Shown: in pieces, positions 4,630 through 45,945 of the stretch
How positions within the stretch are numbered: position 1 is the first letter of the stretch
Layout of the letters: every line of letters begins with the position of its first letter
IMG/VR virus record: IMGVR_UViG_3300025127_000039
Coordinates: 1-58,760 of that record
Strand: one strand, 5' to 3'
DNA: 58,760 nucleotides
DNA from: a virus
Lineage: Duplodnaviria; Caudoviricetes
Position numbers and translations under genes: made by a program
Notes under the pieces: generated by a model
Seen by the model: the letters and a program-made list of their open reading frames with translations, nothing else
Told to the model about the DNA's origin: nothing
The model's database searches: none

Positions 4630-5120
4630 TGGCATTTGCTAGTGGTAAATATGCTTACAGAATATCTGATAGATCTGGTTTTAGATATAAAATTAAAGAC
4701 ACTCGCAAAGAATGGAATGGATCTATTGTTGGTAAAGATGAGTACGAAGAGAAGCATCCACAACTAGAGCCTGCAAATGTAAGGGCTGATAATGAGGCTA
4801 TAAGAGATGCTAGACCTGATAGAACTGAAACAGCGGTTCCTAATCTATTGCCATTAAACGCTTTTTCAACAACTGCAAGTTCTGCAACTGTTACAGTAAA
4901 TGAACCAAATCATGGTAGATCAACAAGCGATACAGTAAGATTCAGAGATGCACTAAGTGTAGGTGGCATATCTGCTTCAACAATTAACTCTGCTTCTGGA
5001 TTTACAATTACAAACATAGATGCGAACAACTATTCGTTTGCGTCTGGAGTAACAGCAACAATAACCCAGAAAGGTGGTGGAGGACTTGCTAGTGCAGGAC
5101 CTACATCAATTACAAACTAA
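4629..5120 (+). CDS. Hypothetical virion protein
   Basis: About 163 aa, ISDRSGF motif, C-terminal beta-rich domain also seen inside the 16379 gene (VTVxxPxHG). Confidence 0.6.
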   Translation: MAFASGKYAYRISDRSGFRYKIKDTRKEWNGSIVGKDEYEEKHPQLEPANVRADNEAIRDARPDRTETAVPNLLPLNAFSTTASSATVTVNEPNHGRSTSDTVRFRDALSVGGISASTINSASGFTITNIDANNYSFASGVTATITQKGGGGLASAGPTSITN

Positions 5121-25600: not shown

Positions 25601-25721
25601 TACAAGTCCAGGCACTGGTGCGGCACTTGGTTTATCTCCTATAGATCAAGCCATAGCAGCTAGAAGAGGATCACCATTGACTGTACCAAAAGAACAATAT
25701 GGGAGTTTATTTAATCAATGA
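22689..25721 (+). CDS. Large internal virion / ejection protein
   Basis: 1010 aa, Gly-zipper hydrophobic segment then a long helical region; last gene of the cluster. Confidence 0.65.
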   Translation: MGIIRVETPQGIIRVEIEGNEPTQEELAAIDQQFSPQQKSRSFDDLLEEAKKTTPTVQGQPTQANFNTESGIQDAGLRSALSLAENKAEEEAILSKQGFSTEDYIRDNRGRLALTPSGAAKVGVQTDKNVLIDEEGFSRNDLSDLAGILPELAGGVTGAIKGATIGTGFAPGFGTLLGGAIGAFVGGGGGSLAEEAIEGIAGVSKQTAGDIATDAAIEGGIAAAGELLFGIPILAYRAVAPSGRKFIQEASKEDLRITAKGIEKGLEPTIAQIKGRPIAAKFQQLQESVLGGSPRTQRIAEAMEKEVGELNKFVSQAATEGSEKSAGDLFLEFEKKFGKELAQKQTKAYGSIMNALKESADNLAGGLERNQLIDDNIFNFVQQSAKNFEDTMSQQWATINEVIETAIGDTRILPTSTIKEVADLAEKKFAQAGTGDLATAEGQLGLKLAADLRALGDKSSFTDAYQLRRKLWDLKNAPKTAQEVEQKAIIDGSVNLTQVWDDAINKVDRLLDSSNIDSLTKEITDQLGSEAFKKMQVASSLLPKARKQFREGTALYNDISRTLGSKELVEQMRSGAFNINRPGALTGLTQRVLGTGGKPTGLNRLKKALDDTQYNQIKTQMGKEWLQGALNKTGFDSIKPTNFKPNEFIKALDDLGDTGVELYGRQRYNQLKTFAKQFEDLKLTNIDSDTVSTLVKQGLDADGNVATALRNSIEQLQETSRLRTNSVFAKIRNNNLDPEEALDLVMSPGATRGDLKAVMNFYKDKPAELKTIRGAYVENMLDNIGAVTNADGMKQLAKNIRRADKSNKLDIVFPNAGDTKEIAGNIRDFGKILERISANIPKGDLVAAGILANVFNNVGRIAKMFVLGQLFTGKKAMKEIVEASKKLDGIQSPTVADQRAFLESVSNAFRPGQVITQSVEENVSEASDQIQSVAENTGINQAVRNVGANTINQLQGIQAVNPNTNVGKIDVTSPGTGAALGLSPIDQAIAARRGSPLTVPKEQYGSLFNQ

Positions 25722-26167
25722 ACATAGAAGAGTTAAGAGAAGAAATTGCGAGAGACGAGGGCAGGGTGAATTCTGTGTATTTAGATCATTTGTCGCTGAA
25801 AACTGTTGGGATTGGGCATTTGGTCAATGAATGGGATGAAGAATATGATAAGCCAGTTGGCACACCAGTATCAGAAGAGCGTGTTAATGAGTTGTTTGAT
25901 AAGGATATAAAAGTAACAATATCAGAGTGCAAAGAATTATTTGACAACTTTGATGAGCTACCGGAAGAAGTACAAAAAATCTGTGCAAACATGATGTTCA
26001 ATATGGGTAGACCAAGATTAAGTGGATTCAAGAAATTTCGTGCAGCTATAGCGAACAACGATTGGGAAGAATGTGCAATTCAAATGGAAGACAGTCGTTG
26101 GCATAAACAGGTCACTAAAAGAGCGAATCGCCTAATTTCAAGAATGAGAGCGGTCGAGGGTACCTAG
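25718..26167 (+). CDS. Lysozyme (GH24, T4-like)
   Basis: DEG...YLDH...TVGIGHL catalytic E-x8-D-x5-T pattern; NMMFNMG; DSRWHKQV..RA.R. Confidence 0.9.
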   Translation: MNIEELREEIARDEGRVNSVYLDHLSLKTVGIGHLVNEWDEEYDKPVGTPVSEERVNELFDKDIKVTISECKELFDNFDELPEEVQKICANMMFNMGRPRLSGFKKFRAAIANNDWEECAIQMEDSRWHKQVTKRANRLISRMRAVEGT

Positions 26168-26335
26168 TCCTAACGTCTTGACGTTACTATTTAAATCTTG
26201 TTTTTCATATTCTATATCAACCATTAGTCCTATTTGCTGACGTATGTTTCTACGTTCTTTATCACATATAATTTTTAATTTATTGTAAGTTGATAGGTCT
26301 ATTCCTATTGACTTGAACTTTGATGTATCTGCCAT
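26138..26335 (-). CDS. Ribbon-helix-helix-like transcriptional regulator
   Basis: 65 aa, FKSIGID strand plus two helices; GGAGG SD on the minus strand; only convincing minus-strand gene. Confidence 0.65.
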   Translation of the reverse strand: MADTSKFKSIGIDLSTYNKLKIICDKERRNIRQQIGLMVDIEYEKQDLNSNVKTLGLGTLDRSHS

Positions 26336-31981: not shown

Positions 31982-34159
31982 ATGGTAATGAACATTATTA
32001 AATTTGGCAACAGTAAACGCAGTATGGATTCTAAGGAATTAGTTGAATTAATAAGTCAAAAAGTTCCATCACAAGTTCAAATTGATTTATTGAGAGAAAC
32101 GTATCCACAAGGTGTCATAAGAGGGGATCAATTTACTATAGGTTCGCTTGGTGGTGAGGCAGGCAAGTCTTTAAAAATAGACATAAATCCTAGATCACCA
32201 TACTTTATGAAAGGACAAGATTTTAATGGTGCAGACGGAGTAGGTGGCATAGTTAAGATATTGATGGAAGGTAGAAATATGAAGTTACCGGAGGTTAAAG
32301 AGTTGTTCGCCTCATATCTTGATGAAGGCACGCCACAACCAGTTGAATCAATTAGTTCTATTATTAAACCGGAATCAAAACAAATAAACATAAACACGCC
32401 TTATGATAGCGAACATAAATATTTGAACGCTCAAGGTGAGTTACTTTGCTTAGTACGCAGATACAATGATATAGATGAACACGGAAATCCTATATTAGAC
32501 TCACATGGCAAACCAAAAAAAGAATTTAGACAGTTTGCTGGAGGCAGTAATTATCCACGTATGCCTGATGTTCGTCCATTATACAATATACCAAATATTA
32601 TAGCTTCAGAAAAAATTATATGGGTTGAGGGGGAAAAATGTGCAGATGCACTTAATGAACTTGGTTATACTGCAACTTGCACAATGGGTGGTGCCGGTAT
32701 GCTTTCAAGAAAGTCTGCAAACTTATTTGACTTTTCTCCGTTGCATGACAAAGAATTAATCATATGGCCAGATAATGATACTGCTGGTCGCAAAGTTGCA
32801 GAGCTAGTACAAGAACTTGCTCTTAACGCCAGTGTTAAATCAGTTACTACATTAACGCCACCAAGAGGTAAGCCTGAAAGATGGGATGTGGTAGATGCTA
32901 TTGCAGAGCAATTTAACATAAATGAATTTCTCAACACTAACATCAAGCAAATAAAAAAGAACATTAATCTTCTTGATGACAGTTTGTTAATTAACAGATT
33001 TGTTGGAGAGGCACCGGAGCAAAAGTTTTTGATAGCTAACACATTACCTTTAGCAGTGCCTATTATATTTTCTGCCGCAGGTGACAGTGGTAAAGGTATG
33101 ATGACATTGGACTTAGCAATGAAAGTATCAAGTGGTCAATCAATGCAAGAATCTTTTGGTGGCATGATTAGTGAGTTTGGCAATTCAATTATATTTACTG
33201 CCGAAGATGATGAAGCAGAGATGCACAGAAGAATTGATAGACTTGATTTTGAAAACAATAGGCAAAGTTTTGAGCATGAGTTACGAATCGTTAGTTTGCC
33301 TAATGTTGGTGGTGTCTTTCCTATACTGCAAGAAACACATGATGGTTACAGAACAAGCGATGAATTTGATAAAATATATGAACAAATACTGCAAATGAAG
33401 AACTTAAAACTTATAGTATTTGATCCTTTGGCTTCATTTGTACACGCAGATGTAAACTCTGATCCTGCGGCGGGTGCGGCTTTAACTGGTTTGTTAGCAC
33501 AAATAGCTACTGAAACCGGTGCCTCAGTCATAATGTGTCATCATATGACTAAAGTTAAAGAAGATTTAGTTGTAAGCACACCGGAACAAGCAAGAAATAT
33601 GATTAGAGGCACGTCTGCATTAGTTGATGGTGTTCGTTGTGCGTTTGCATTATGGCAAGTTGACGAAGCAACTGGGCGTAGAAGATGTCAAGATTTAGGC
33701 ATAGAATATAAAAGAAACAAATGCTTTGATGGTGCAGTCGTTAAATCTAATGGGCCAGCTAACAGAAACATAAGGCACTTTATTAGAGATGAATATAGTG
33801 GATTACTTGTGGATAAAAGCGAAGATATATCAAGATTACATACCGGCTCAAATAAAGAAATCAAAAAGACTGCGTTGTTTAATTGGATTGCAGATTGTGA
33901 AAGAGAGGGCAGAGCTATGACACAACAGTCCGGTGCAGATGCTATTTTGCAAAGAATGTCTGCTGATACTGATGCACCAAGGGTTTTAAACAACTGCACA
34001 CAAAGAATGATTGATGGTCTTGTTAGAGAGTTAATACAAGAGGGCAGACTGGCTAAGTATTCCTTTAGTACAAGTGGTGGCAGAAAGTGGCTTGGCACCA
34101 TTGATGGCGATATGAGTAGAGGTGAATACGAGGCAACCACTGCAAGAGATAATGTATAA
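31982..34159 (+). CDS. TOPRIM primase fused to an AAA_25/RepA-like helicase
   Basis: VEGEKCADA and WPDND TOPRIM motifs; AAGDSGKG Walker A variant; AEDD, FDPL, HHMTK, RGTSA motifs. Confidence 0.85.
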   Translation: MVMNIIKFGNSKRSMDSKELVELISQKVPSQVQIDLLRETYPQGVIRGDQFTIGSLGGEAGKSLKIDINPRSPYFMKGQDFNGADGVGGIVKILMEGRNMKLPEVKELFASYLDEGTPQPVESISSIIKPESKQININTPYDSEHKYLNAQGELLCLVRRYNDIDEHGNPILDSHGKPKKEFRQFAGGSNYPRMPDVRPLYNIPNIIASEKIIWVEGEKCADALNELGYTATCTMGGAGMLSRKSANLFDFSPLHDKELIIWPDNDTAGRKVAELVQELALNASVKSVTTLTPPRGKPERWDVVDAIAEQFNINEFLNTNIKQIKKNINLLDDSLLINRFVGEAPEQKFLIANTLPLAVPIIFSAAGDSGKGMMTLDLAMKVSSGQSMQESFGGMISEFGNSIIFTAEDDEAEMHRRIDRLDFENNRQSFEHELRIVSLPNVGGVFPILQETHDGYRTSDEFDKIYEQILQMKNLKLIVFDPLASFVHADVNSDPAAGAALTGLLAQIATETGASVIMCHHMTKVKEDLVVSTPEQARNMIRGTSALVDGVRCAFALWQVDEATGRRRCQDLGIEYKRNKCFDGAVVKSNGPANRNIRHFIRDEYSGLLVDKSEDISRLHTGSNKEIKKTALFNWIADCEREGRAMTQQSGADAILQRMSADTDAPRVLNNCTQRMIDGLVRELIQEGRLAKYSFSTSGGRKWLGTIDGDMSRGEYEATTARDNV

Positions 34160-35996
34160 AATAGTAGATTTATTTAGTGGCATAGGAGGATTTAGCTATG
34201 CTGCCGAACAAATAGTAGGTGGCTTTGAAACAATAGCTTTCGTTGAAAGAGACGAATATTGTCAAAAAGTCTTGCGTAAACATTGGCACGATGTACCAAT
34301 ATATAGTGATATAAGGAGTTTTGATGGTAAAGAATACAAAGACGCAGATATCGTTGTTGGAGGATTCCCATGTCAACCCTGGTCGGTTGCAGGAGCTCAA
34401 AAGGGAAGCGAAGATGACAGAGATCTCTGGCACGAAATGGTTAGGATTATTGAAGACATACGGCCACGATGGATCATTGGCGAGAATGTGTCAGGCTTTG
34501 TTACAATGCCAATGGGTCTCAGAAGAAGTCTCATTGACTTGGAAAGTATCGGATACAAAGCCATCCCATATCTTATTCCAGCTGCAGCCGTCGACGCCAA
34601 GCATAGACGAATGCGATGCTGGATTGTGGGCCACACCGAACACGATGGATCATCTGCCACCCCGTTCAGAGGAAGGAACAATGAAGCTGATGGAGGGTCA
34701 ACGCAAGGGACGAACAAAACCGGCGAACTTGAGGGAGCAAGTGGACAACAAGACAATGGATATATACAAACAGACATCTTCGACTTTGTGGCCGACACCA
34801 ACGACACAGGAGATAGAGCACCCGCAAGCGGAGTTGACAACGAACAACAGAAGGTTGAGCAAGGACGGGAAGAGCAGCCACAGTCTGAACTTAGCAGACA
34901 CAGTAAAGATGTGGCCAACGCCAACAACAATGGACACGAAGGAAGATGCGTTGAAACACGCAACCAAACTTTTACAGGGCAAAACACACAGAGCAAGTGG
35001 AGAGCCGATACAGAAGTCATTAGTGGACAAAGTAATGATGGAAGAGATAAAGAAAAATCCGGAATTGATGAAGATTTACGAAGATCACGAAATGGTTTTT
35101 CGTCCAAACTTACCACCACAACAGGAGTTTGTGGCTTATCTCAGAGAACAAACAACAATCAAGGAGTTGTCAGAGAAAACGGATATAAAGAAAACAACAA
35201 TAGAACATTGGTTTCGCAAGGATCAAAAGGGATTCAGTCATCCAAGCATAGAGGATTGGGAGAAGATAAAACCACATCTGAATCAAATCAAGTACGATCA
35301 ACAGATGACCACTATAAAAACAAAAGAATGGAAAAAAACAAATCAAATGTGGAGAACGCCAACGGCAGCGAATGCGACACAGGGGCCGAAGAGCGAACAA
35401 CTTTACCACAAAGTGAAGAAAGACGGCTCAAGTGCAATAACATTAGTGGACGAAGTGAAGATGTTCCCAACACCAAGGGCAAGGGATTGGAAAGACGGAT
35501 ACAGAGTACCACCATCAGTACAGAACGGAACGAGAGCACACACTCTGGGAACATTTATAGCAGAGAAAGAGATAATGTGGCCGACACCGACAACAAAGGG
35601 GTACGGACACGCATCAATGGGTCAAACAATGATCTTCAGAAAAAAAGTGGAAGCCGGGGAAATGACCGAACAACAAGCAGAGCAGATGTTGGGTTGCACA
35701 CTAAGACCACCAAGAATGGAGAAATGGGATTATCCCAAAAAGGAGATGTTCCCTACGCCATCGGCAAACGAAGATGCAGCGGGACGACCAGGGGGGAAGA
35801 TGCAAAAGATGTTAGGCAACCATCCTTCCGTGAGAGACCAGTCCTCTGGAACCCTGAACCCAACGTGGGTAGAGTGGCTAATGGGGTACCCAATAGGGTA
35901 CACAGACTTAGATGTTTAGGGAATAGTATCGTGCCACAGGTCGTTGCAAGAATATTTTATGCTATTAAGGAGGCAGATAAAAATGAAAAAATATGA
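34152..35996 (+). CDS. C5 DNA cytosine methyltransferase, alpha (catalytic) polypeptide
   Basis: Motifs I (DLFSGIGG), IV (GFPCQ), VI (ENV), VIII (HRRMRCWIV) and X (RLRCLGNSIVPQ); about 400 low-complexity codons in place of the TRD. Confidence 0.9.
   Translation: MYKIVDLFSGIGGFSYAAEQIVGGFETIAFVERDEYCQKVLRKHWHDVPIYSDIRSFDGKEYKDADIVVGGFPCQPWSVAGAQKGSEDDRDLWHEMVRIIEDIRPRWIIGENVSGFVTMPMGLRRSLIDLESIGYKAIPYLIPAAAVDAKHRRMRCWIVGHTEHDGSSATPFRGRNNEADGGSTQGTNKTGELEGASGQQDNGYIQTDIFDFVADTNDTGDRAPASGVDNEQQKVEQGREEQPQSELSRHSKDVANANNNGHEGRCVETRNQTFTGQNTQSKWRADTEVISGQSNDGRDKEKSGIDEDLRRSRNGFSSKLTTTTGVCGLSQRTNNNQGVVRENGYKENNNRTLVSQGSKGIQSSKHRGLGEDKTTSESNQVRSTDDHYKNKRMEKNKSNVENANGSECDTGAEERTTLPQSEERRLKCNNISGRSEDVPNTKGKGLERRIQSTTISTERNESTHSGNIYSRERDNVADTDNKGVRTRINGSNNDLQKKSGSRGNDRTTSRADVGLHTKTTKNGEMGLSQKGDVPYAIGKRRCSGTTRGEDAKDVRQPSFRERPVLWNPEPNVGRVANGVPNRVHRLRCLGNSIVPQVVARIFYAIKEADKNEKI
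34324..35919 (+). CDS. Nested +1-frame protein, predicted C5-MTase beta subunit (tandem TRD-like modules plus motif IX)
   Basis: AAGGAG SD at 34313-34318; about 531 aa open; seven W/F-x-T-P repeats; C-terminal LNPTWVEWLMGYPIGYT. Confidence 0.8.
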   Translation: MVKNTKTQISLLEDSHVNPGRLQELKREAKMTEISGTKWLGLLKTYGHDGSLARMCQALLQCQWVSEEVSLTWKVSDTKPSHILFQLQPSTPSIDECDAGLWATPNTMDHLPPRSEEGTMKLMEGQRKGRTKPANLREQVDNKTMDIYKQTSSTLWPTPTTQEIEHPQAELTTNNRRLSKDGKSSHSLNLADTVKMWPTPTTMDTKEDALKHATKLLQGKTHRASGEPIQKSLVDKVMMEEIKKNPELMKIYEDHEMVFRPNLPPQQEFVAYLREQTTIKELSEKTDIKKTTIEHWFRKDQKGFSHPSIEDWEKIKPHLNQIKYDQQMTTIKTKEWKKTNQMWRTPTAANATQGPKSEQLYHKVKKDGSSAITLVDEVKMFPTPRARDWKDGYRVPPSVQNGTRAHTLGTFIAEKEIMWPTPTTKGYGHASMGQTMIFRKKVEAGEMTEQQAEQMLGCTLRPPRMEKWDYPKKEMFPTPSANEDAAGRPGGKMQKMLGNHPSVRDQSSGTLNPTWVEWLMGYPIGYTDLDV

Positions 35997-36231
35997 TAGA
36001 TGCACGAAATGTGAAAAACTATTACCAATTCCAAAGAAGAAAAGAAGTTATAAATATGTCTGTGATAGTTGTGTTGTAAAAGAATTATTAGAAAAAAATT
36101 TAGTAACACCAGTTGTAGAAGAAGAATGGTTTGAAGATGACCCTAGAGCTATCAAAGAAGTAGAGTATGGTAGGGTATCAAGAAACGCAACTCATGTATT
36201 CTCTCGTAATATTTTAGATGATATGGGTTGA
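35983..36231 (+). CDS. Small zinc-finger protein
   Basis: AAGGAGG SD, CTKC and CDSC, FEDDP. Confidence 0.65.
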   Translation: MKKYDRCTKCEKLLPIPKKKRSYKYVCDSCVVKELLEKNLVTPVVEEEWFEDDPRAIKEVEYGRVSRNATHVFSRNILDDMG

Positions 36232-36256
36232 CATATAGGTTGCAGCTACCTATATT
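36228..36256 (+). promoter_or_regulatory. Sigma70-type promoter with TAGG-N9-CCTA operator (drives the putative sRNA)
   Basis: TTGACA-17-TATATT; TAGG ttgcagcta CCTA at 36236-36252. Confidence 0.7.
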
Positions 36257-36262
36257 CAAAAT

Positions 36263-36347
36263 ATAAAGAAAGTGATCGTAAGATTACTCCTTTTGTTTTA
36301 AAAATGTTTGTGAAAGAAGGCCTGGAGTAATCCAGGTCTTTTTTTTT
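36263..36347 (+). ncRNA. Putative small RNA or attenuator, about 85 nt
   Basis: Bounded by a promoter and an intrinsic terminator; two GUAA-tetraloop hairpins; CUCCUUUU tract; no credible ORF. Confidence 0.55.
36318..36347 (+). terminator. Rho-independent terminator
   Basis: AGGCCTGGA-gtaa-TCCAGGTCT plus T run. Confidence 0.85.
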
Positions 36348-36358
36348 GTTCTAATTTA

Positions 36359-36399
36359 TTGACATTTGGCATTGACTTCCTATATGACTATCATATACT
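36359..36399 (+). promoter_or_regulatory. Promoter with degenerate operator
   Basis: TTGACA at 36359; TTGG cattgactt CCTA; second TTGACT-16-TATACT. Confidence 0.55.
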
Positions 36400-36419
36400 A
36401 GCAAATATGAGGAGTTATT

Positions 36420-37748
36420 ATGGATAATAAGTTTAGTAAACCCATGATGGCAAGTGAGATTGTTGCAGCATTATCTGATCCATCACGAGGTGTAAAAGGT
36501 TATATAAAAGGTAAGTATGCTAAAGCTATGGCAAGATCTGTTCAGTCAGATATTGCATCATCTCAAAAATTTGTTTTATCAAATAATTTAGTTGATCATG
36601 TTGTTGCCAACGCATTTTTAAAACCTGAAGCAATGCTTGGACAAATTAAAACCGGCATACCACCATTTACAAATATGTTTATTGAGTGGGATGATTCTTA
36701 TCTTCAAAAGGCTATTTATAAACATTTAGCTAAAACTTTTAATAAAGAGTTGTCTACAAAAAAACAAATGGGTGAAAATTACTTTGATATAGATGATCTA
36801 CCAGCTAAACAACATAAAAATAGAGCTGGTTATCATATTCATCAAGTTAATGATAGTTGGTTGTATGAACTTTGGTTTAAAGATCAAGAAAGCGGCAAGT
36901 ATGCCGCATTTCCAAAATGTATAGTCATTGAACATGATGAAGATTACTCAATGGAAAAACATTATGGTCAATATGAAAAAGAAAAATGGATGATGCCATC
37001 TGATTTACATCATTTTGACAGAGATCAGATGAGACTTGCAGTACATACTGTAGGAGCACATCTTTGGGGTAATCATTATCAAACTGTACAAAGTTATGGA
37101 GAAACCCATAGAAGATTAATACGTTCTATGAGAAAAGATAGTGATAGAGAACTTAGAAGTACAAAGAAATCAAATCATTTCATTAGAAGATTACAAACTT
37201 ATTTTAAAACTGAAGAAAGCACAGCCAAGTTTTTTGATCCATATTATTTAGATTTAATGTGCAGAACTGCTACTGCACAAGGATCTGCAATGCACTGGTT
37301 GATTCCTGAAAGTAAGTTTCAACAAGGTTGGACATCTGAAGAAATGAGTGCACTTACCAAATATACTATGGATAGTGTTTCAATGGATGTACAAATTCTA
37401 ATTTCAACTTTGGCTATTCTTAATTATGAACACATAGTTATGCAAAAAAAGAATCCAAGTGAAGACAAAATAAAGCACGTTGCTTATGGCAGAAGAGTGC
37501 CTGCAAATGAATATTCACTACTTGAAATAGATTTACCCAAGCCTAGAGGTAAACTGTTTTATGAACGTGAATTTACCGGACATGGATCACCAAAGAGGTG
37601 GCACATGAGAAGAGGTCATTGGAGACGTTATCGTGATGCAAAAGGTAATATCACGAAAAGAGTTTGGATTGACCAATGTGAGGCTGGCAGTAAAGAGTTA
37701 GGCTCAAAAATAAACGACTATAACTTACAAAAAGCAAAAGGAGAGTAG
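36420..37748 (+). CDS. Hypothetical protein with C-terminal H-x-RRGHWR motif
   Basis: 442 aa, GAGGAG SD, SPKRWHMRRGHWRR. Confidence 0.75.
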   Translation: MDNKFSKPMMASEIVAALSDPSRGVKGYIKGKYAKAMARSVQSDIASSQKFVLSNNLVDHVVANAFLKPEAMLGQIKTGIPPFTNMFIEWDDSYLQKAIYKHLAKTFNKELSTKKQMGENYFDIDDLPAKQHKNRAGYHIHQVNDSWLYELWFKDQESGKYAAFPKCIVIEHDEDYSMEKHYGQYEKEKWMMPSDLHHFDRDQMRLAVHTVGAHLWGNHYQTVQSYGETHRRLIRSMRKDSDRELRSTKKSNHFIRRLQTYFKTEESTAKFFDPYYLDLMCRTATAQGSAMHWLIPESKFQQGWTSEEMSALTKYTMDSVSMDVQILISTLAILNYEHIVMQKKNPSEDKIKHVAYGRRVPANEYSLLEIDLPKPRGKLFYEREFTGHGSPKRWHMRRGHWRRYRDAKGNITKRVWIDQCEAGSKELGSKINDYNLQKAKGE

Positions 37749-39869: not shown

Positions 39870-39900
39870 TTGACATATAGGTGTTGAGTGCCTATTTATT
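39870..39900 (+). promoter_or_regulatory. Promoter with TAGG-N9-CCTA operator
   Basis: TTGACA at 39870; TAGG tgttgagtg CCTA at 39878-39894. Confidence 0.65.
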
Positions 39901-39931
39901 AATTATAACATTTTTAAAAAGGAGTTTTGTT

Positions 39932-40396
39932 ATGAAATTAGAACTTAAAAATATTAAGTATTTTGCAAGTGGTAGTCAAGAAACCCCATGTTACACTGCG
40001 ACCCTTTACATTGATGGTAAGAAAGCAGTTTATGTAGATAATGATGGTCATGGTGGTTGTGATAGACATCATGCAATAGAACCATTTACATGGAAAGATG
40101 TGGAAAAGGTTAAGAGTTATCTAGCCAAGCAAAGTGGTGATTCATTTGAGCCTTTGGATACATGGTGCCAAGATAAGATGTATGATCATGTTGAGCAAAA
40201 GAAACTCAAAAGAGATATGAACACAAAATATATTTGTGTTGATACTGATAAAAACCAACTTTATGCCTATCCTAAAAAAGTGGCCAATGCCACAGTGTTT
40301 CAAAAGCACATGGAAAAAAAGCACCCAAAGGATACTTGTTTGAACTTTTTGCCTTTTGATGTTGCTTGGCATATTTTTGAGGGAGTAACTGCTTAA
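39932..40396 (+). CDS. Hypothetical protein
   Basis: AAAAGGAG SD; SQETPCY.ATLY.DGK...NDGHGG motif. Confidence 0.7.
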   Translation: MKLELKNIKYFASGSQETPCYTATLYIDGKKAVYVDNDGHGGCDRHHAIEPFTWKDVEKVKSYLAKQSGDSFEPLDTWCQDKMYDHVEQKKLKRDMNTKYICVDTDKNQLYAYPKKVANATVFQKHMEKKHPKDTCLNFLPFDVAWHIFEGVTA

Positions 40397-41364: not shown

Positions 41365-41656
41365 AGTACGTTGTACTAAGTGCAATGAACTCATATTGCG
41401 TAACCGAGAACTGATTGTGAATAAAAGAACAATCTGTCTTGGTTGTGCAGTTGAGATGGGTTTAACCCAAAAAATGAAACTAGACATAAATCATAAAATG
41501 AACTGTTACAAAGGTGGTGGACTCGGCGATGGCGAGTGCCATTACTGTTGGGTTCAAACGTGGGGTGGTATGCGTGATTTGGGGTACGAATGTACCGATA
41601 ATGGGTCATGGTATAAACGTACAGATTTCCACAATGTTTTGGTGATTTATGAGTAA
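41312..41656 (+). CDS. Cys-rich (zinc finger) hypothetical protein
   Basis: CTKC, CLGC, CHYC; start uncertain. Confidence 0.55.
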   Translation: MFIMRKMKMVLPNSKRVKVRCTKCNELILRNRELIVNKRTICLGCAVEMGLTQKMKLDINHKMNCYKGGGLGDGECHYCWVQTWGGMRDLGYECTDNGSWYKRTDFHNVLVIYE

Positions 41657-41657
41657 T

Positions 41658-41880
41658 TTACTTACCACTTACCAACTTACTTGGTAAGTAGATTATAGAG
41701 GGAAGTAGCAAGTTATTGTTTTTATTGGATAAATTAAATTTACTTACCCAACTTACTTCTTATTATGGTAAGTTGGTTTTGTCTTGTAAGTCATTGATTT
41801 TATTGGTACTTACCAACTTACCGAACTTCCCCCCTATAAGGGGGTATAGGGGGGTGGTAAGTAACCCACCCCATACCCTA
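41658..41880. repeat. Iteron array, putative replication origin
   Basis: About 11 ACTTAC/GTAAGT copies in both orientations, AT-rich core, IHF-consensus match at 41787-41799, GC-rich hairpins. Confidence 0.65.
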
Positions 41881-43302: not shown

Positions 43303-43332
43303 TTGACAAGTAGGCATTGAATACCATATAAT
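43303..43332 (+). promoter_or_regulatory. Consensus sigma70 promoter with UP element and operator
   Basis: TTGACA-18-TATAAT, upstream A-tract; TAGG cattgaata CCAT. Confidence 0.8.
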
Positions 43333-43363
43333 ATATATGCAAACGAAACAAAAGGGGGTCATT

Positions 43364-43702
43364 ATGACACAACAAAATAAAAAATATGTTGTTCCTGGTC
43401 AAGGCGACATGGAAAGCATTAAAGAACTCATGAATAAACTAGACGCACATAATGGCGAGTGCGATTACTGTCTTGAAGAAATTAATCAGTATCCTTTAGA
43501 GGTTAAGAAAACTCAAGGCTATGAACTTCTTTTGGGGACTGGGGGTCCGGCAACAAGGATTGTTGGTCAGATCAATGAGTATGGCGAGCCAGTGACGGCA
43601 GAACTGCAAGGGCAAGACTGGGGAACCCAATGGGAAAGAACAGAGGGACAAGATGAAAAAACTCTGTTGCAATTTGCTCAACACTTTTACTTTGGGGGTT
43701 AA
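43364..43702 (+). CDS. Early hypothetical protein
   Basis: AAAGGGGG SD before ATG 43364; acidic; LLGTGGPA motif. Confidence 0.7.
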   Translation: MTQQNKKYVVPGQGDMESIKELMNKLDAHNGECDYCLEEINQYPLEVKKTQGYELLLGTGGPATRIVGQINEYGEPVTAELQGQDWGTQWERTEGQDEKTLLQFAQHFYFGG

Positions 43703-43789: not shown

Positions 43790-44250
43790 TTCGGACATTG
43801 TTCGGAGTTCGGACCCAGATCCTTCACCGGTCTGGGTCTTTTTGTTCGTGCCTCTGCTGCCGTCCGGGTGATAACGAATGATTGTTCGCTGCCTTCTGCT
43901 GCACCGGTGTGCTCGGAGCGAATGATTGTTCGCTCTTCAGCTTGTCCCGGCGGCCGCAAGCTGATCGTTTTGCTGCCGGATCTGTCACCGCACGAACTAT
44001 TGTTCGCTCACGCTTCCCGGCCCGTTCTACACCGCCTAAAAAAAAAGTCCCAGAATTCTGGGATTGTTCGCCCTTCAGTAGCAGCGCAGCTGACACCCTA
44101 GCTGCAACGCTAGACCGGCGTGAAGCACAAGCGAACTATTGTTCGGTATGATCGGACATCGGACTCGGACTGTCGGACTTCGGACATCCGGACATCTGCA
44201 GCACCAGGTTGCAGCTTGCAGCTTTTTCCGGTTTTTTGAGCGAACAATCT
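43790..44250. repeat. GC-rich repeat array B
   Basis: CGAAYNATTGTTCG at 43875, 43919, 43993, 44132; partial copies at 43798, 43842, 44064; CGGAC cluster at 44152-44193. Confidence 0.85.
43812..43843 (+). terminator. Rho-independent terminator
   Basis: GACCCAGATC-cttcacc-GGTCTGGGTC-TTTTT. Confidence 0.75.
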
Positions 44251-44373
44251 AATATTCGTTTGATTTATTCGTTTAAATTAATTTCATAAATAGGTATTCA
44301 ATGCTTGAGATGTTCGCTTAAAAATGTTAACATTGATTCGCACAAACATTAATCATTACGAAAGGACTTTATT

Positions 44374-45486
44374 ATGATTGATATAGCAATAGGATTTGAA
44401 AGAGAAGTTGACTCCTTATCTGTAAGAGATGGAATCAATATCTTTGCAAATCATCCAACTTTAAACTTTATAAAAGTTAAACACGATGCGAGTCTTCCAA
44501 ATGGTTGTGAGATTATCTTTCCACCTTTGAGTAGTAAAGCAGAATCTACTTGGCAATATTCAAGTCAAGTTAATGATTTGATTATTGCAAATGGTGGAAG
44601 AATAACTCGTCAATGTGGTCATCATGTTCATTTTGGATTGAAACCAATAACAATGAATTGTGAGGATTTTAACAGACAATCAATTCAATTGTTTAAAGAT
44701 AGAAACCAATACTTCCAAGACTCAAATGATATGTTTCAATTTGAAGTTATCAAAGACGTTGTTTATAGATATGCACAATATCAAGACTTCATATCAAGTT
44801 TCTTAGCACCTAGTCGCAGAAACTCAAGATATGCAAGTCCTATAAATGGTTTCTTAAATAGAATAGAAGATTCTAGAGATATGACTCAATTAAAGAATTG
44901 TATTAATGGAAAGTTTTATTCTGTTAACTTATCTAATATTGATATTAGAAATCAAAAAGGAACGATTGAGTTTAGACAACATCAAGGAACAGTAAACAAT
45001 ACTAAGTTAAAAAATTGGATTATGTTTCTTGTTAATATGTTTGATTATACAATCAATCATAGAATCCAAGTTGTAAGACAAGGCGAAAAGTTTATTGATA
45101 ACTTACAAAATACAATGCCAAGAAATACCAAACTCCATCAAGTTTTTGAGATGTTACAAACAGATAATGGTGCGACTACTCGTGAGATTATGGACTCTGT
45201 TGGTATTAATGATGCAAGATCTGTAAGAAGAACCATTAACACTATAAGACGTAAACTAGGCGATTGTAGTTTGGTTATTTGTTTGACTCAAGAATACTAT
45301 GGTCATTTAAATGGTACGTCTAATGGTCTTTACGACTTGAATGGATACAAGATTCCAAAGCAAGTTGAGAGAGAATCTCAAGGCGAAGTTATCATTGATA
45401 ACAATGCAGATTCCCATGTGTTTAGTAACTTAGCAGAGTCATTAAAGACATGGTTTAACAACAGAATATCAAGTCTAGGTAACTAG
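44374..45486 (+). CDS. Putative amidoligase (COOH-NH2 ligase type 2) with C-terminal HTH-like domain
   Basis: GFERE, HDASL, CEIIFPPL, CGHHVH, SRR...YA, KFYSVN, GTIEFRQHQGT motifs; AAAGGA SD. Confidence 0.85.
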   Translation: MIDIAIGFEREVDSLSVRDGINIFANHPTLNFIKVKHDASLPNGCEIIFPPLSSKAESTWQYSSQVNDLIIANGGRITRQCGHHVHFGLKPITMNCEDFNRQSIQLFKDRNQYFQDSNDMFQFEVIKDVVYRYAQYQDFISSFLAPSRRNSRYASPINGFLNRIEDSRDMTQLKNCINGKFYSVNLSNIDIRNQKGTIEFRQHQGTVNNTKLKNWIMFLVNMFDYTINHRIQVVRQGEKFIDNLQNTMPRNTKLHQVFEMLQTDNGATTREIMDSVGINDARSVRRTINTIRRKLGDCSLVICLTQEYYGHLNGTSNGLYDLNGYKIPKQVERESQGEVIIDNNADSHVFSNLAESLKTWFNNRISSLGN

Positions 45487-45524
45487 ACTTGATTAACTTC
45501 ACAAACATAAACAAGGAGTCAATT

Positions 45525-45764
45525 ATGACAATCAATAAAACAATCAAAGCGAATAATAAAAAGTATAATTTACAATTTAAACCAACTCCAATTTTAGGTG
45601 GCGAGTATGAGTTGGATTCTGATAATGGAAAACTTCTCCAAGATTACGCAACTTTGAATCCATTTCCAAACCAATTGTTTTTTTACAGTCATATTAATAT
45701 CATTGATAAAGTATTAGATGAACAAGACGAAACGATTGAGTACGTCAAAAGAATCTATAAGTAA
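45525..45764 (+). CDS. Hypothetical protein co-transcribed with the amidoligase
   Basis: AAGGAG SD before ATG 45525; 79 aa. Confidence 0.65.
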   Translation: MTINKTIKANNKKYNLQFKPTPILGGEYELDSDNGKLLQDYATLNPFPNQLFFYSHINIIDKVLDEQDETIEYVKRIYK

Positions 45765-45789: not shown

Positions 45790-45819
45790 GGGGGGCATAC
45801 CATATGCCCCCCTTTTTTT
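45790..45819 (+). terminator. Rho-independent terminator
   Basis: GGGGGGCATA-cca-TATGCCCCCC-TTTTTTT. Confidence 0.9.
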
Positions 45820-45916: not shown

Positions 45917-45945
45917 TTGACCTTTAGGCACTCAAATCCTATGTT
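45917..45945 (+). promoter_or_regulatory. Promoter with TAGG-N9-CCTA operator
   Basis: TTGACC-17-TATGTT; TAGG cactcaaat CCTA at 45925-45941; upstream A/T tracts. Confidence 0.7.

Follow-up and report, generated by a model that had tools for sequence, protein, structure and literature searches.

A conserved small RNA of uncultured marine phages and its predicted pairing with leaders of the phage's own genes

The virus record IMGVR_UViG_3300025127_000039 is complete at 58,760 bp (37.9% G+C; CheckV completeness 100%), and was analysed here over its whole length, which we call the window. In the 188-nt gap that separates an open reading frame (ORF) of 82 aa (35983-36231) from one of 442 aa (36420-37748), it carries at 36262-36347 what, judged by its sequence, is a real, conserved and structured small RNA (sRNA) gene. 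The sRNA is a new RNA family with a proposed mechanism of an already known kind, and its carriers are uncultured marine phages related to SAR11 phages. The reading that we favour, with moderate confidence, is that the RNA would act in trans as an antisense RNA, occluding the Shine-Dalgarno (SD) leaders of the phage's own genes. A promoter of host type, P1, would start a transcript of about 85 nt that is ended by its own intrinsic terminator; a first hairpin (hairpin 1) and the terminator would frame and stabilise the RNA around the tract (A)CUCCUUUUGUUUUAAAA(A)UGUUUGU, and this core would form a duplex in trans with short leaders at the 5' ends of several downstream phage mRNAs, which would themselves be made from promoters of the same class as P1. 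The duplex would hide the SD, and translation, perhaps also mRNA stability, would be lowered for what appear to be accessory or DNA-modification genes. We infer that the sRNA is produced, that it pairs and that it represses, the last of these from the occlusion of the SD by the duplex.

The small RNA gene and its family

The original prediction had described at 36228-36347 a promoter, an RNA of about 85 nt with no ORF and a strong intrinsic terminator, and all three were found in the sequence, arranged as follows together with the promoter that comes next:

36228-36256, + strand: P1, a sigma-70-type promoter of the sRNA, TTGACA-17-TATATT, with 11 of 12 consensus matches
36235-36253, no strand: palindrome ATAGGT-N7-ACCTAT in the P1 spacer (the putative 'operator'), common to the promoter class
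36262-36347, + strand: the sRNA, about 85 nt, its 5' end placed by the spacing from the -10 hexamer and its 3' end in the T-run
36271-36288, + strand: hairpin 1, AGTGATC/GTAA/GATTACT, 7 bp, with the loop GUAA here
36286-36311, + strand: single-stranded core ACU-CCUUUUGUUUUAAAAAUGUUUGU, an anti-SD plus U/G-rich tract and the proposed pairing surface
36312-36347, + strand: intrinsic terminator with the GC core GGCCTGGA/TCCAGGTC, loop GUAA and 9 T; 15 pairs (36312-36345)
36359-36419, + strand: P2, a conserved promoter of the same class, with the leader of the 442-aa ORF

No ORF of at least 25 aa lies within the unit, which, with its own promoter, its own intrinsic terminator and no coding potential, has the makings of an independent bacterial-type sRNA gene. 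For the 85-nt RNA the predicted fold has -29.4 kcal/mol (z = -6.0), a value matched by none of 200 shuffles, and a covariance model of the family, R1, matches 36262-36346 with 95.6 bits. A leader peptide was considered and rejected: the conserved AUG opens eight codons here and three in another clade, and does so without an SD.

Related loci were gathered by four routes, namely with the 442-aa protein (27 loci), with the exact core of 22-23 nt in viral sequences (30 stretches) and in metagenomes (30 stretches), and with the pattern of the downstream promoter P2. The last of these added four loci, overlooked by the exact pattern, whose cores are near-variants: L081 and L093 have a one-base insertion, L091 one substitution and L087 two; ten of its 14 new loci were dropped as chance matches in unrelated genes. 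The resulting family comprises 34 distinct full-length variants, in uncultured HTVC023P-like marine phages, and exactly one copy of the sRNA was found in each of the five related records that were searched whole. The core is single-stranded and nearly invariant: between clades in which the 442-aa protein is 39-40% identical, it is either identical or different at one or two positions.

The structure is conserved as well, and the covariation check named in the original prediction came out in its favour, both hairpins covarying across relatives. In a MAFFT alignment of 17 variants, 98.5% of cells are paired, a share that drops to 26-53% once the partners are slid; seven pairs are changed on both sides, among them all five outer pairs of hairpin 1, and the covariation score was reached by none of 500 shuffles. 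An alignment of 20 variants fitted to the model, and therefore biased towards the structure, is 100% paired, with ten of 16 pairs changed on both sides, six of the seven in hairpin 1 among them. For the terminator stem, the pairs changed on both sides number two in the MAFFT and four in the model-fitted alignment. The GNRA loops that had been remarked on fared less well: GUAA does close both hairpins of the window, but across variants the loop of hairpin 1 is GUAA in some and AUC, GUCA, UUAUU, CUC, UAA, UUUU or others in the rest, and with a loop that varies so freely GNRA is not a feature of the family. A 5' extension helix offered by RNAfold and RNAalifold (AUAAAG/UUUUGU) was likewise set aside as unsupported, since both of its sides are almost invariant and all three changed sequences break the helix.

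Searches outside these phages found no homologous RNA. Model R1, run on four relatives that are cultured or complete (HTVC027P, 023Pt_psg01, HTVC023P and DSL-LC04), found the element absent (best match 20.6 bits, E 0.16), and blastn against 50,697 phage records gave nothing at E 1e-5, with only chance-like matches of 19-57 nt at E up to 10. Among prokaryotes (one genome per species, 185,579 species) the exact core or its complement occurs twice; the two matches appear to be chance-like, scoring 25 and 16 bits with the model and lacking a terminator or sRNA structure. No Rfam 15 family reaches its gathering score anywhere in the window, and at E up to 10, c4 included, no family homologous to the sRNA appeared. 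The best sub-threshold matches, MicX (28.6 bits, against a required 75), ncr1015 (29.0 against 60) and rpsL_ricks (29.1 against 60), are weak and driven by the terminator.

Predicted target leaders

An anti-SD tract directed at the gene at 39932 had been proposed, and the SD concerned, AAAAGGAGT, does lie at 39917-39925, directly before the ATG at 39932. In a duplex scan of the single-stranded core against the + strand of the window and its 78 ribosome-binding regions, the best sites precede the start codons at 44374, 45525, 43364, 37750 and 39932, all downstream of the sRNA; the two targets that had been named beforehand, 39932 and 45525, stand fourth and seventh, and so among the seven best of the 78 regions. 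The predicted sites are:

39870-39934, + strand: type-A promoter-leader cassette of ORF 39932-40396; the leader pairs with the sRNA in the predicted duplex, the SD being covered
43303-43366, + strand: promoter (12 of 12 consensus matches) and type-B leader of ORF 43364; -17.2 kcal/mol
44341-44366, + strand: leader of the amidoligase-like gene 44374-45486; top-ranked among the predicted sites of the window, -20.9 kcal/mol
45500-45519, + strand: leader of ORF 45525-45764, CACAAACAU AAACAAGGAGU; -15.0 kcal/mol
37734-37743, + strand: SD region of ORF 37750, GCAAAAGGAG, a weaker candidate site; -14.7 kcal/mol

In the type-A duplex predicted for the window, mRNA positions 39907-39925 pair with RNA positions 36286-36294 and 36299-36308 around a 4-nt bulge, and the SD is covered. 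The type-B leader has AAACAAAAGG at 43346-43355, a perfect complement of CCUUUUGUUU, and the leader of the amidoligase-like gene (Pfam Amidoligase_2) complements the core with CACAAACAUUAA and GAAAGGA. Homologous amidoligase leaders are again among the top sites in three other genomes that carry the sRNA (G001, G002 and G003), and the 37750 site has a counterpart in G001 and in locus L052.

Three types of leader can be distinguished. Type A reads AUAACAUUUU(U)AACAAAAGGAG..GUUAUG and stands behind a promoter of the class, type B reads ACAAACA..AAACAAAAGGAGUC (also ACAAACA..AAACAAAAGGAG), and the amidoligase type reads ACAAACAUUUUAA..AGGA. Jointly they use the entire invariant core, which would account for its conservation over the full length. 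In the window and in relatives, 11 different ORF starts are preceded by a nearly identical type-A cassette, and about ten of the 11 ORFs behind it look unrelated when judged by eye, without alignment; kept as it is before differing ORFs, the leader itself would appear to be under selection. The type-A leader can also fold on itself, AUAACA(U) with (A)UGUUAU, so that the SD comes to lie in the loop and the stem has the start codon at its base; this self-fold has -3.3 to -5.3 kcal/mol in G001, G002 and G003, and for the window leader (39905-39934) the minimum free energy (MFE) fold is a different one.

The complementarity was tested against shuffled cores. Of 300 dinucleotide shuffles scored over the ribosome-binding regions of the window, 299 fall short of the real core in their best site, and the same number do so in the mean of their top five sites. 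Because an anti-SD word alone favours ribosome-binding regions, the test was repeated in seven genomes on cores of which the first seven bases were kept and all others shuffled (200 shuffles), and the shuffles that reached the observed top-five mean were counted. In the sRNA carriers these were 8 of 200 for the window, 4 of 200 for G001 and 1 of 200 for each of G002 and G003; in cultured relatives without the sRNA they were 87 of 200 for HTVC027P, 97 of 200 for 023Pt_psg01 and 199 of 200 for HTVC023P. Among the seven genomes tested, the complementarity to leaders exceeds that of shuffles only in those that bear the sRNA. In addition, the length of an A-run in the RNA goes with that of a U-run in the type-A leader: A5 occurs with U5 in all three distinct pairs, and A4 with U4 in seven of eight, the exception having U3, so that the lengths match in ten of 11 pairs (1 in 165 by an exact test that ignores relatedness). 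Loci L040 and L032, which have the same hairpin, differ in both the A-run and the U-run. When the full RNA was cofolded with the type-A leader, the difference in free energy (ddG) lay between -11.1 and -12.0 kcal/mol in each of four genomes (-12.0 in the window), and the terminator was kept. A conserved single-stranded seed complementary to conserved target sites, the mark of an antisense sRNA, is thus present computationally.

Several points weigh against this antisense reading. The core-only energy at the window type-A site is modest (-13.3 kcal/mol, with the 4-nt bulge), a U-rich RNA readily pairs with A-rich leaders, and the ORF starts used in the target scans were called crudely by our own script. 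The 11 pairs behind the A/U length match are not phylogenetically independent, and the match may also stem from concerted evolution of two copies of one DNA motif; where the core carries substitutions, in L087 and L091, these are uncompensated in the type-A leader of L087. Two of the cassettes, L057/L124 and L131, have no P1, and there the sRNA would be obtained only by read-through or processing. The sRNA and its proposed targets share a promoter class, and the regulatory or timing logic might be that of a threshold or of a shut-off. As for a chaperone, sequence features of a possible Hfq-type RNA are present (a tail of 8-9 U and the tract UUUUGUUUU). A metatranscriptome run that contained 5% of the sampled words had seven contigs, on the methylase gene and at 39.6-41.0 kb, and none on the sRNA; contigs being unable to reveal a small RNA, this speaks neither for nor against expression. 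Finally, there is a slim chance, taken up below, that the tract is a protein site in DNA.

The promoter class and competing explanations

The original prediction had called the sRNA operator-controlled, and of this the palindrome has proved real, ATAGGY-N7-RCCTAT recurring in a whole class of promoters; control by a protein is plausible but unproven. As an exact pattern, ATAGGT-N7-ACCTAT of the P1 spacer is unique in the window. The looser motif TTGAC-(2-3 nt)-WGGY-N7-NCC-TAT occurs five times on the + strand and not at all on the - strand, against 0.025 in a shuffled window, at P1 (36228), P2 (36359), 39870, 43303 and 45917, the fifth being:

45917-45945, + strand: class promoter TTGACC-TTTAGGC-N7-TCCTAT

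The layout of the class is a -35 hexamer TTGAC(A/C), a spacer with WGGY-N7-NCC and a -10 hexamer TATnnn immediately after it. The motif is found three or four times in each of G001, G002 and G003 and is absent from the three cultured relatives; it is a hallmark of this putative promoter class in the lineage and a good candidate for the binding site of a dimeric regulator. A candidate for that regulator is the sole convincing ORF of the minus strand (26138-26335, 65 aa), which lies between a lysozyme-like gene (25718-26167) and the gene that opens the replication module (26348), and whose N-terminus looks by eye like a ribbon-helix-helix repressor, with no Pfam match.

By a strict pattern P1 is present in 35 of 41 distinct cassettes; inspection of the six misses by eye left two in which it is truly absent and four in which the pattern had failed (offset, N or variant -10). 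In the two, L057/L124 and L131, the sRNA and P2 are kept, and unrelated sequence replaces P1 and the end of the 82-aa ORF. A contig from run X3 has 311 other letters in place of 35980-36262, with the junction exactly at the 5' end of the sRNA. P2 follows the terminator by at most 45 nt in 39 of the 41 distinct cassettes and precedes other genes in relatives. In L081 the gene immediately behind it, in place of the 442-aa ORF homologue, is a tRNA-Cys (GCA; 4870-4943, - strand of the locus), from which P2 would be a real promoter and the sRNA a separate unit. One clade (L006/L053, L122) has an insertion of about 130 nt between the sRNA terminator and P2, with an extra hairpin and T-run (AGACTGGTTAGCGATTGCGATCAGTCT TTTTTTT).

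The attenuator that had been put forward as the other possible function, alongside the trans-acting repressor which the comparisons favour for phage mRNAs (the core being antisense to several leaders), belongs with a wider alternative in which the element acts in cis as a leader, be it an attenuator that has alternative folds or a module like PR'-6S-tR' of lambda that is read through by means of a phage factor at the spacer palindrome. We regard this as very unlikely, even if a short transcript does lie between a strong promoter and a strong terminator, a palindrome lies in the P1 spacer, a small regulator-like ORF (82 aa) ends on P1, and a conserved -10-like TATAAAG at about +1 to +7 resembles sigma-dependent pause signals. 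The 9-nt complementarity between 36282-36290 and 36324-36332 is present in the window as had been said, but as a mutually exclusive antiterminator it fails, for the helix is confined to the clade of the window and missing from other clades, and the best fold that contains it has -20.5 kcal/mol against an MFE of -29.8, that is, 9.3 kcal/mol worse, with a pair probability of about 2e-6. When the RNA is truncated before the 3' arm of the terminator, hairpin 1 is retained in all 20 variants, and the 5' arm pairs weakly and differently from variant to variant; conserved, exclusive terminator and antiterminator folds, as in an attenuator or riboswitch-like element, are therefore not found, and the switchable fold does not hold up. 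With P2 behind the terminator, downstream expression needs no read-through. The same position of P2, and the lack of a family for the 82-aa ORF, speak against a Q module of the lambda type, and antitermination of the Q type is not known to require a conserved RNA structure or sequence. Quite unlikely, too, is that we are looking at an operon junction, in which the terminator would end the replication/methylase operon and P2 open the next, P1 and the RNA being a functionless by-product and hairpin 1 with the U-tract a second, weak terminator. The position of the element between the replication module and the next, the location of nearly all genes on the + strand, the CCUUUUGUUUU that follows hairpin 1, and the necessary read-through transcription of the two cassettes without P1 would all agree with this, but a simple terminator could do without a promoter kept upstream of it in nearly all cassettes, without an invariant single strand of 22 nt and without an AU-rich hairpin that covaries, and hairpin 1 fails a terminator scan that requires at least three G-C pairs.

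Two further alternatives accept that the tract matters and dispute what it binds. The sRNA might be made and structured while its main targets are host transcripts, or might titrate a host RNA-binding protein such as Hfq, with the matches to phage leaders secondary. The 5' hairpin, U-rich single strand and terminator with 8-9 U would be in keeping with this, such a combination being typical of chaperone-dependent sRNAs, and the invariance of the core across phages would suit a conserved host target. The known phage sRNAs VpdS and PreS, moreover, act on host mRNAs (PMC12197685). We nevertheless hold this to be unlikely, as the core or its complement has only the two chance-like matches among 185,579 species (one genome each), and as the carrier-specific complementarity to the phage's own leaders would be left unexplained. 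The least probable of the alternatives is that the invariant tract is a site for a protein on double-stranded DNA that occurs also in the leaders, in the other orientation, with the RNA complementarity a side effect. The same words do recur at about +5 to +25 of several promoters, and the A/U length covariation would be equally expected of co-evolving protein sites; however, the leaders match differing and partly non-overlapping segments of the core, with bulges, which suits RNA pairing and ill suits one protein site, the orientation yields antisense RNAs in 11 of 11 distinct type-A pairs, and the tract is flanked by covarying RNA helices.

Genome setting and known systems

Nearly all genes of the window are on the + strand. 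The genes for terminase, portal, head and tail occupy a stretch that begins at 48.6 kb and continues round to about 25.7 kb, and the replication module (26.3-36.2 kb) has a Sak4-like protein, a helicase, a Cas4-type exonuclease, a primase/helicase and a C5 methylase; the module after it, up to 48.6 kb, contains an N6/N4 methylase, DUF7768, GGACT and the amidoligase, besides numerous small ORFs. In its terminase the phage shares 60% identity with Pelagibacter phage HTVC027P and 56% with HTVC023P. The length of the window and its 78 ORFs, as counted by script, fit the HTVC023P-type group, for which a mean of 58,776 bp and 82 ORFs is given (PMC9599517); the phage is probably an HTVC023P-like marine podophage.

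Directly upstream of the sRNA lies a gene which, on its 3' side, touches P1:

35983-36231, + strand: 82-aa ORF, zinc-ribbon-like (CxxC...CxxC), its stop codon overlapping the -35 hexamer of P1

In most cassettes the C-terminus of its homologues, ..DD(M/I/F/L)x*, runs straight into TTGAC, and remoter homologues (32% identity) occur without the sRNA. It has no Pfam or PHROG family, and Atlas clusters name it only 'hypothetical protein'; the 442-aa ORF likewise has no Pfam or PHROG family, and no match in a tblastn search against phages. In the methylase region, two overlapping + strand frames, 34122-35996 (624 aa) and 34321-35919 (532 aa), both match DNA-methyltransferase PHROGs (phrog_363, phrog_1008), and contigs from other samples skip 438 nt there (34906 to 35345); the overlap may reflect an inserted element, a frameshift or a nested gene. 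At 41654-41864, in a 245-nt intergenic stretch, the words ACTTACC and GGTAAGT are dense in both orientations, with five families of direct repeats, 12 inverted pairs and a palindrome CCCCCCTATA/TATAGGGGGG; this iteron-like stretch may be a replication origin or an array of protein-binding sites. Three further strong + strand intrinsic terminators, after the major head gene (948-971), after ORF 43364-43702 (43811-43839) and before the 45917 promoter (45790-45812), delimit short transcription units in the 43-46 kb region.

The proposed action has precedents. The c4 RNA of the temperate phages P1 and P7 is processed from the operon transcript of its own target, pairs through two loop sequences and serves immunity. 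The sRNA differs from it in having no sequence or structure homology to c4, its own promoter and terminator, a linear single-stranded tract and several predicted targets. The likeness lies in the proposed pairing in trans of a phage RNA around the ribosome-binding site of the phage's own mRNA, c4 (77 nt) being a trans antisense RNA that blocks translation near that site (PMC12197685). VpdS of VP882 alters the levels of both phage and host mRNAs (PMC12197685). Like VpdS and the PreS RNA of lambda, the sRNA is a small, terminator-ended phage RNA proposed to pair with mRNAs; unlike it, those two were found by experiment, are Hfq-dependent and have chiefly host targets, whereas the targets of the sRNA are predictions only, namely conserved leader cassettes in its own phage. 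The strong promoter and short terminated transcript at the border of gene modules recall PR'-6S RNA-tR' of lambda, from which the present element departs in having the promoter P2 after the terminator and an RNA conserved in structure and sequence; no Q-like protein turned up in family searches (Pfam, PHROG, Atlas). The RegA protein of T4 sits on the initiation regions of many phage mRNAs and thereby lowers their translation, and the proposal here resembles it in setting one phage factor over many phage mRNAs, the factor being a protein in the case of RegA and an RNA in ours. The sar RNA of P22 and the OOP RNA of lambda are encoded opposite their targets and owe their full complementarity to that overlap, unlike the sRNA, which shares its strand with the proposed targets, is encoded 1.4 to 9 kb upstream of them and is only partly complementary to them. 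Through pairing, sar and OOP, which are likewise short phage RNAs, each reduce the expression of a phage mRNA (PMC12197685).

Phage-encoded base-pairing RNAs have been described mostly in temperate phages of enterobacteria (PMC12197685), and HTVC027P, one of the cultured relatives, is called lytic in PMC12753301. In the texts of PMC9599517 and PMC12753301, supplements aside, promoters, terminators and small RNAs are not mentioned at all, and a literature search on small RNAs of pelagiphages brought up only unrelated work, so that we found no account of such elements in the HTVC023P-type group. What would be new is the predicted antisense match between the core and conserved promoter-leader cassettes that precede downstream genes of the phage itself, at 39932, 43364, 44374 and 45525.

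A broader reading, which we put forward only tentatively, is that the sRNA may be the post-transcriptional master switch of a plug-in system, in which, throughout this lineage of very abundant marine phages, interchangeable accessory genes stand behind a few standard promoter-leader cassettes with a shared spacer operator and leaders antisense to different segments of the core. If so, a newly acquired gene would come at once under timing control that is both transcriptional and RNA-mediated, and such cassettes would explain how newly acquired genes are wired into the programme of the phage. If the antisense reading is true, these phages would have a defined RNA regulon, with predictions at the level of sequence, and with model R1 a new RNA family becomes available for the annotation of marine viromes.

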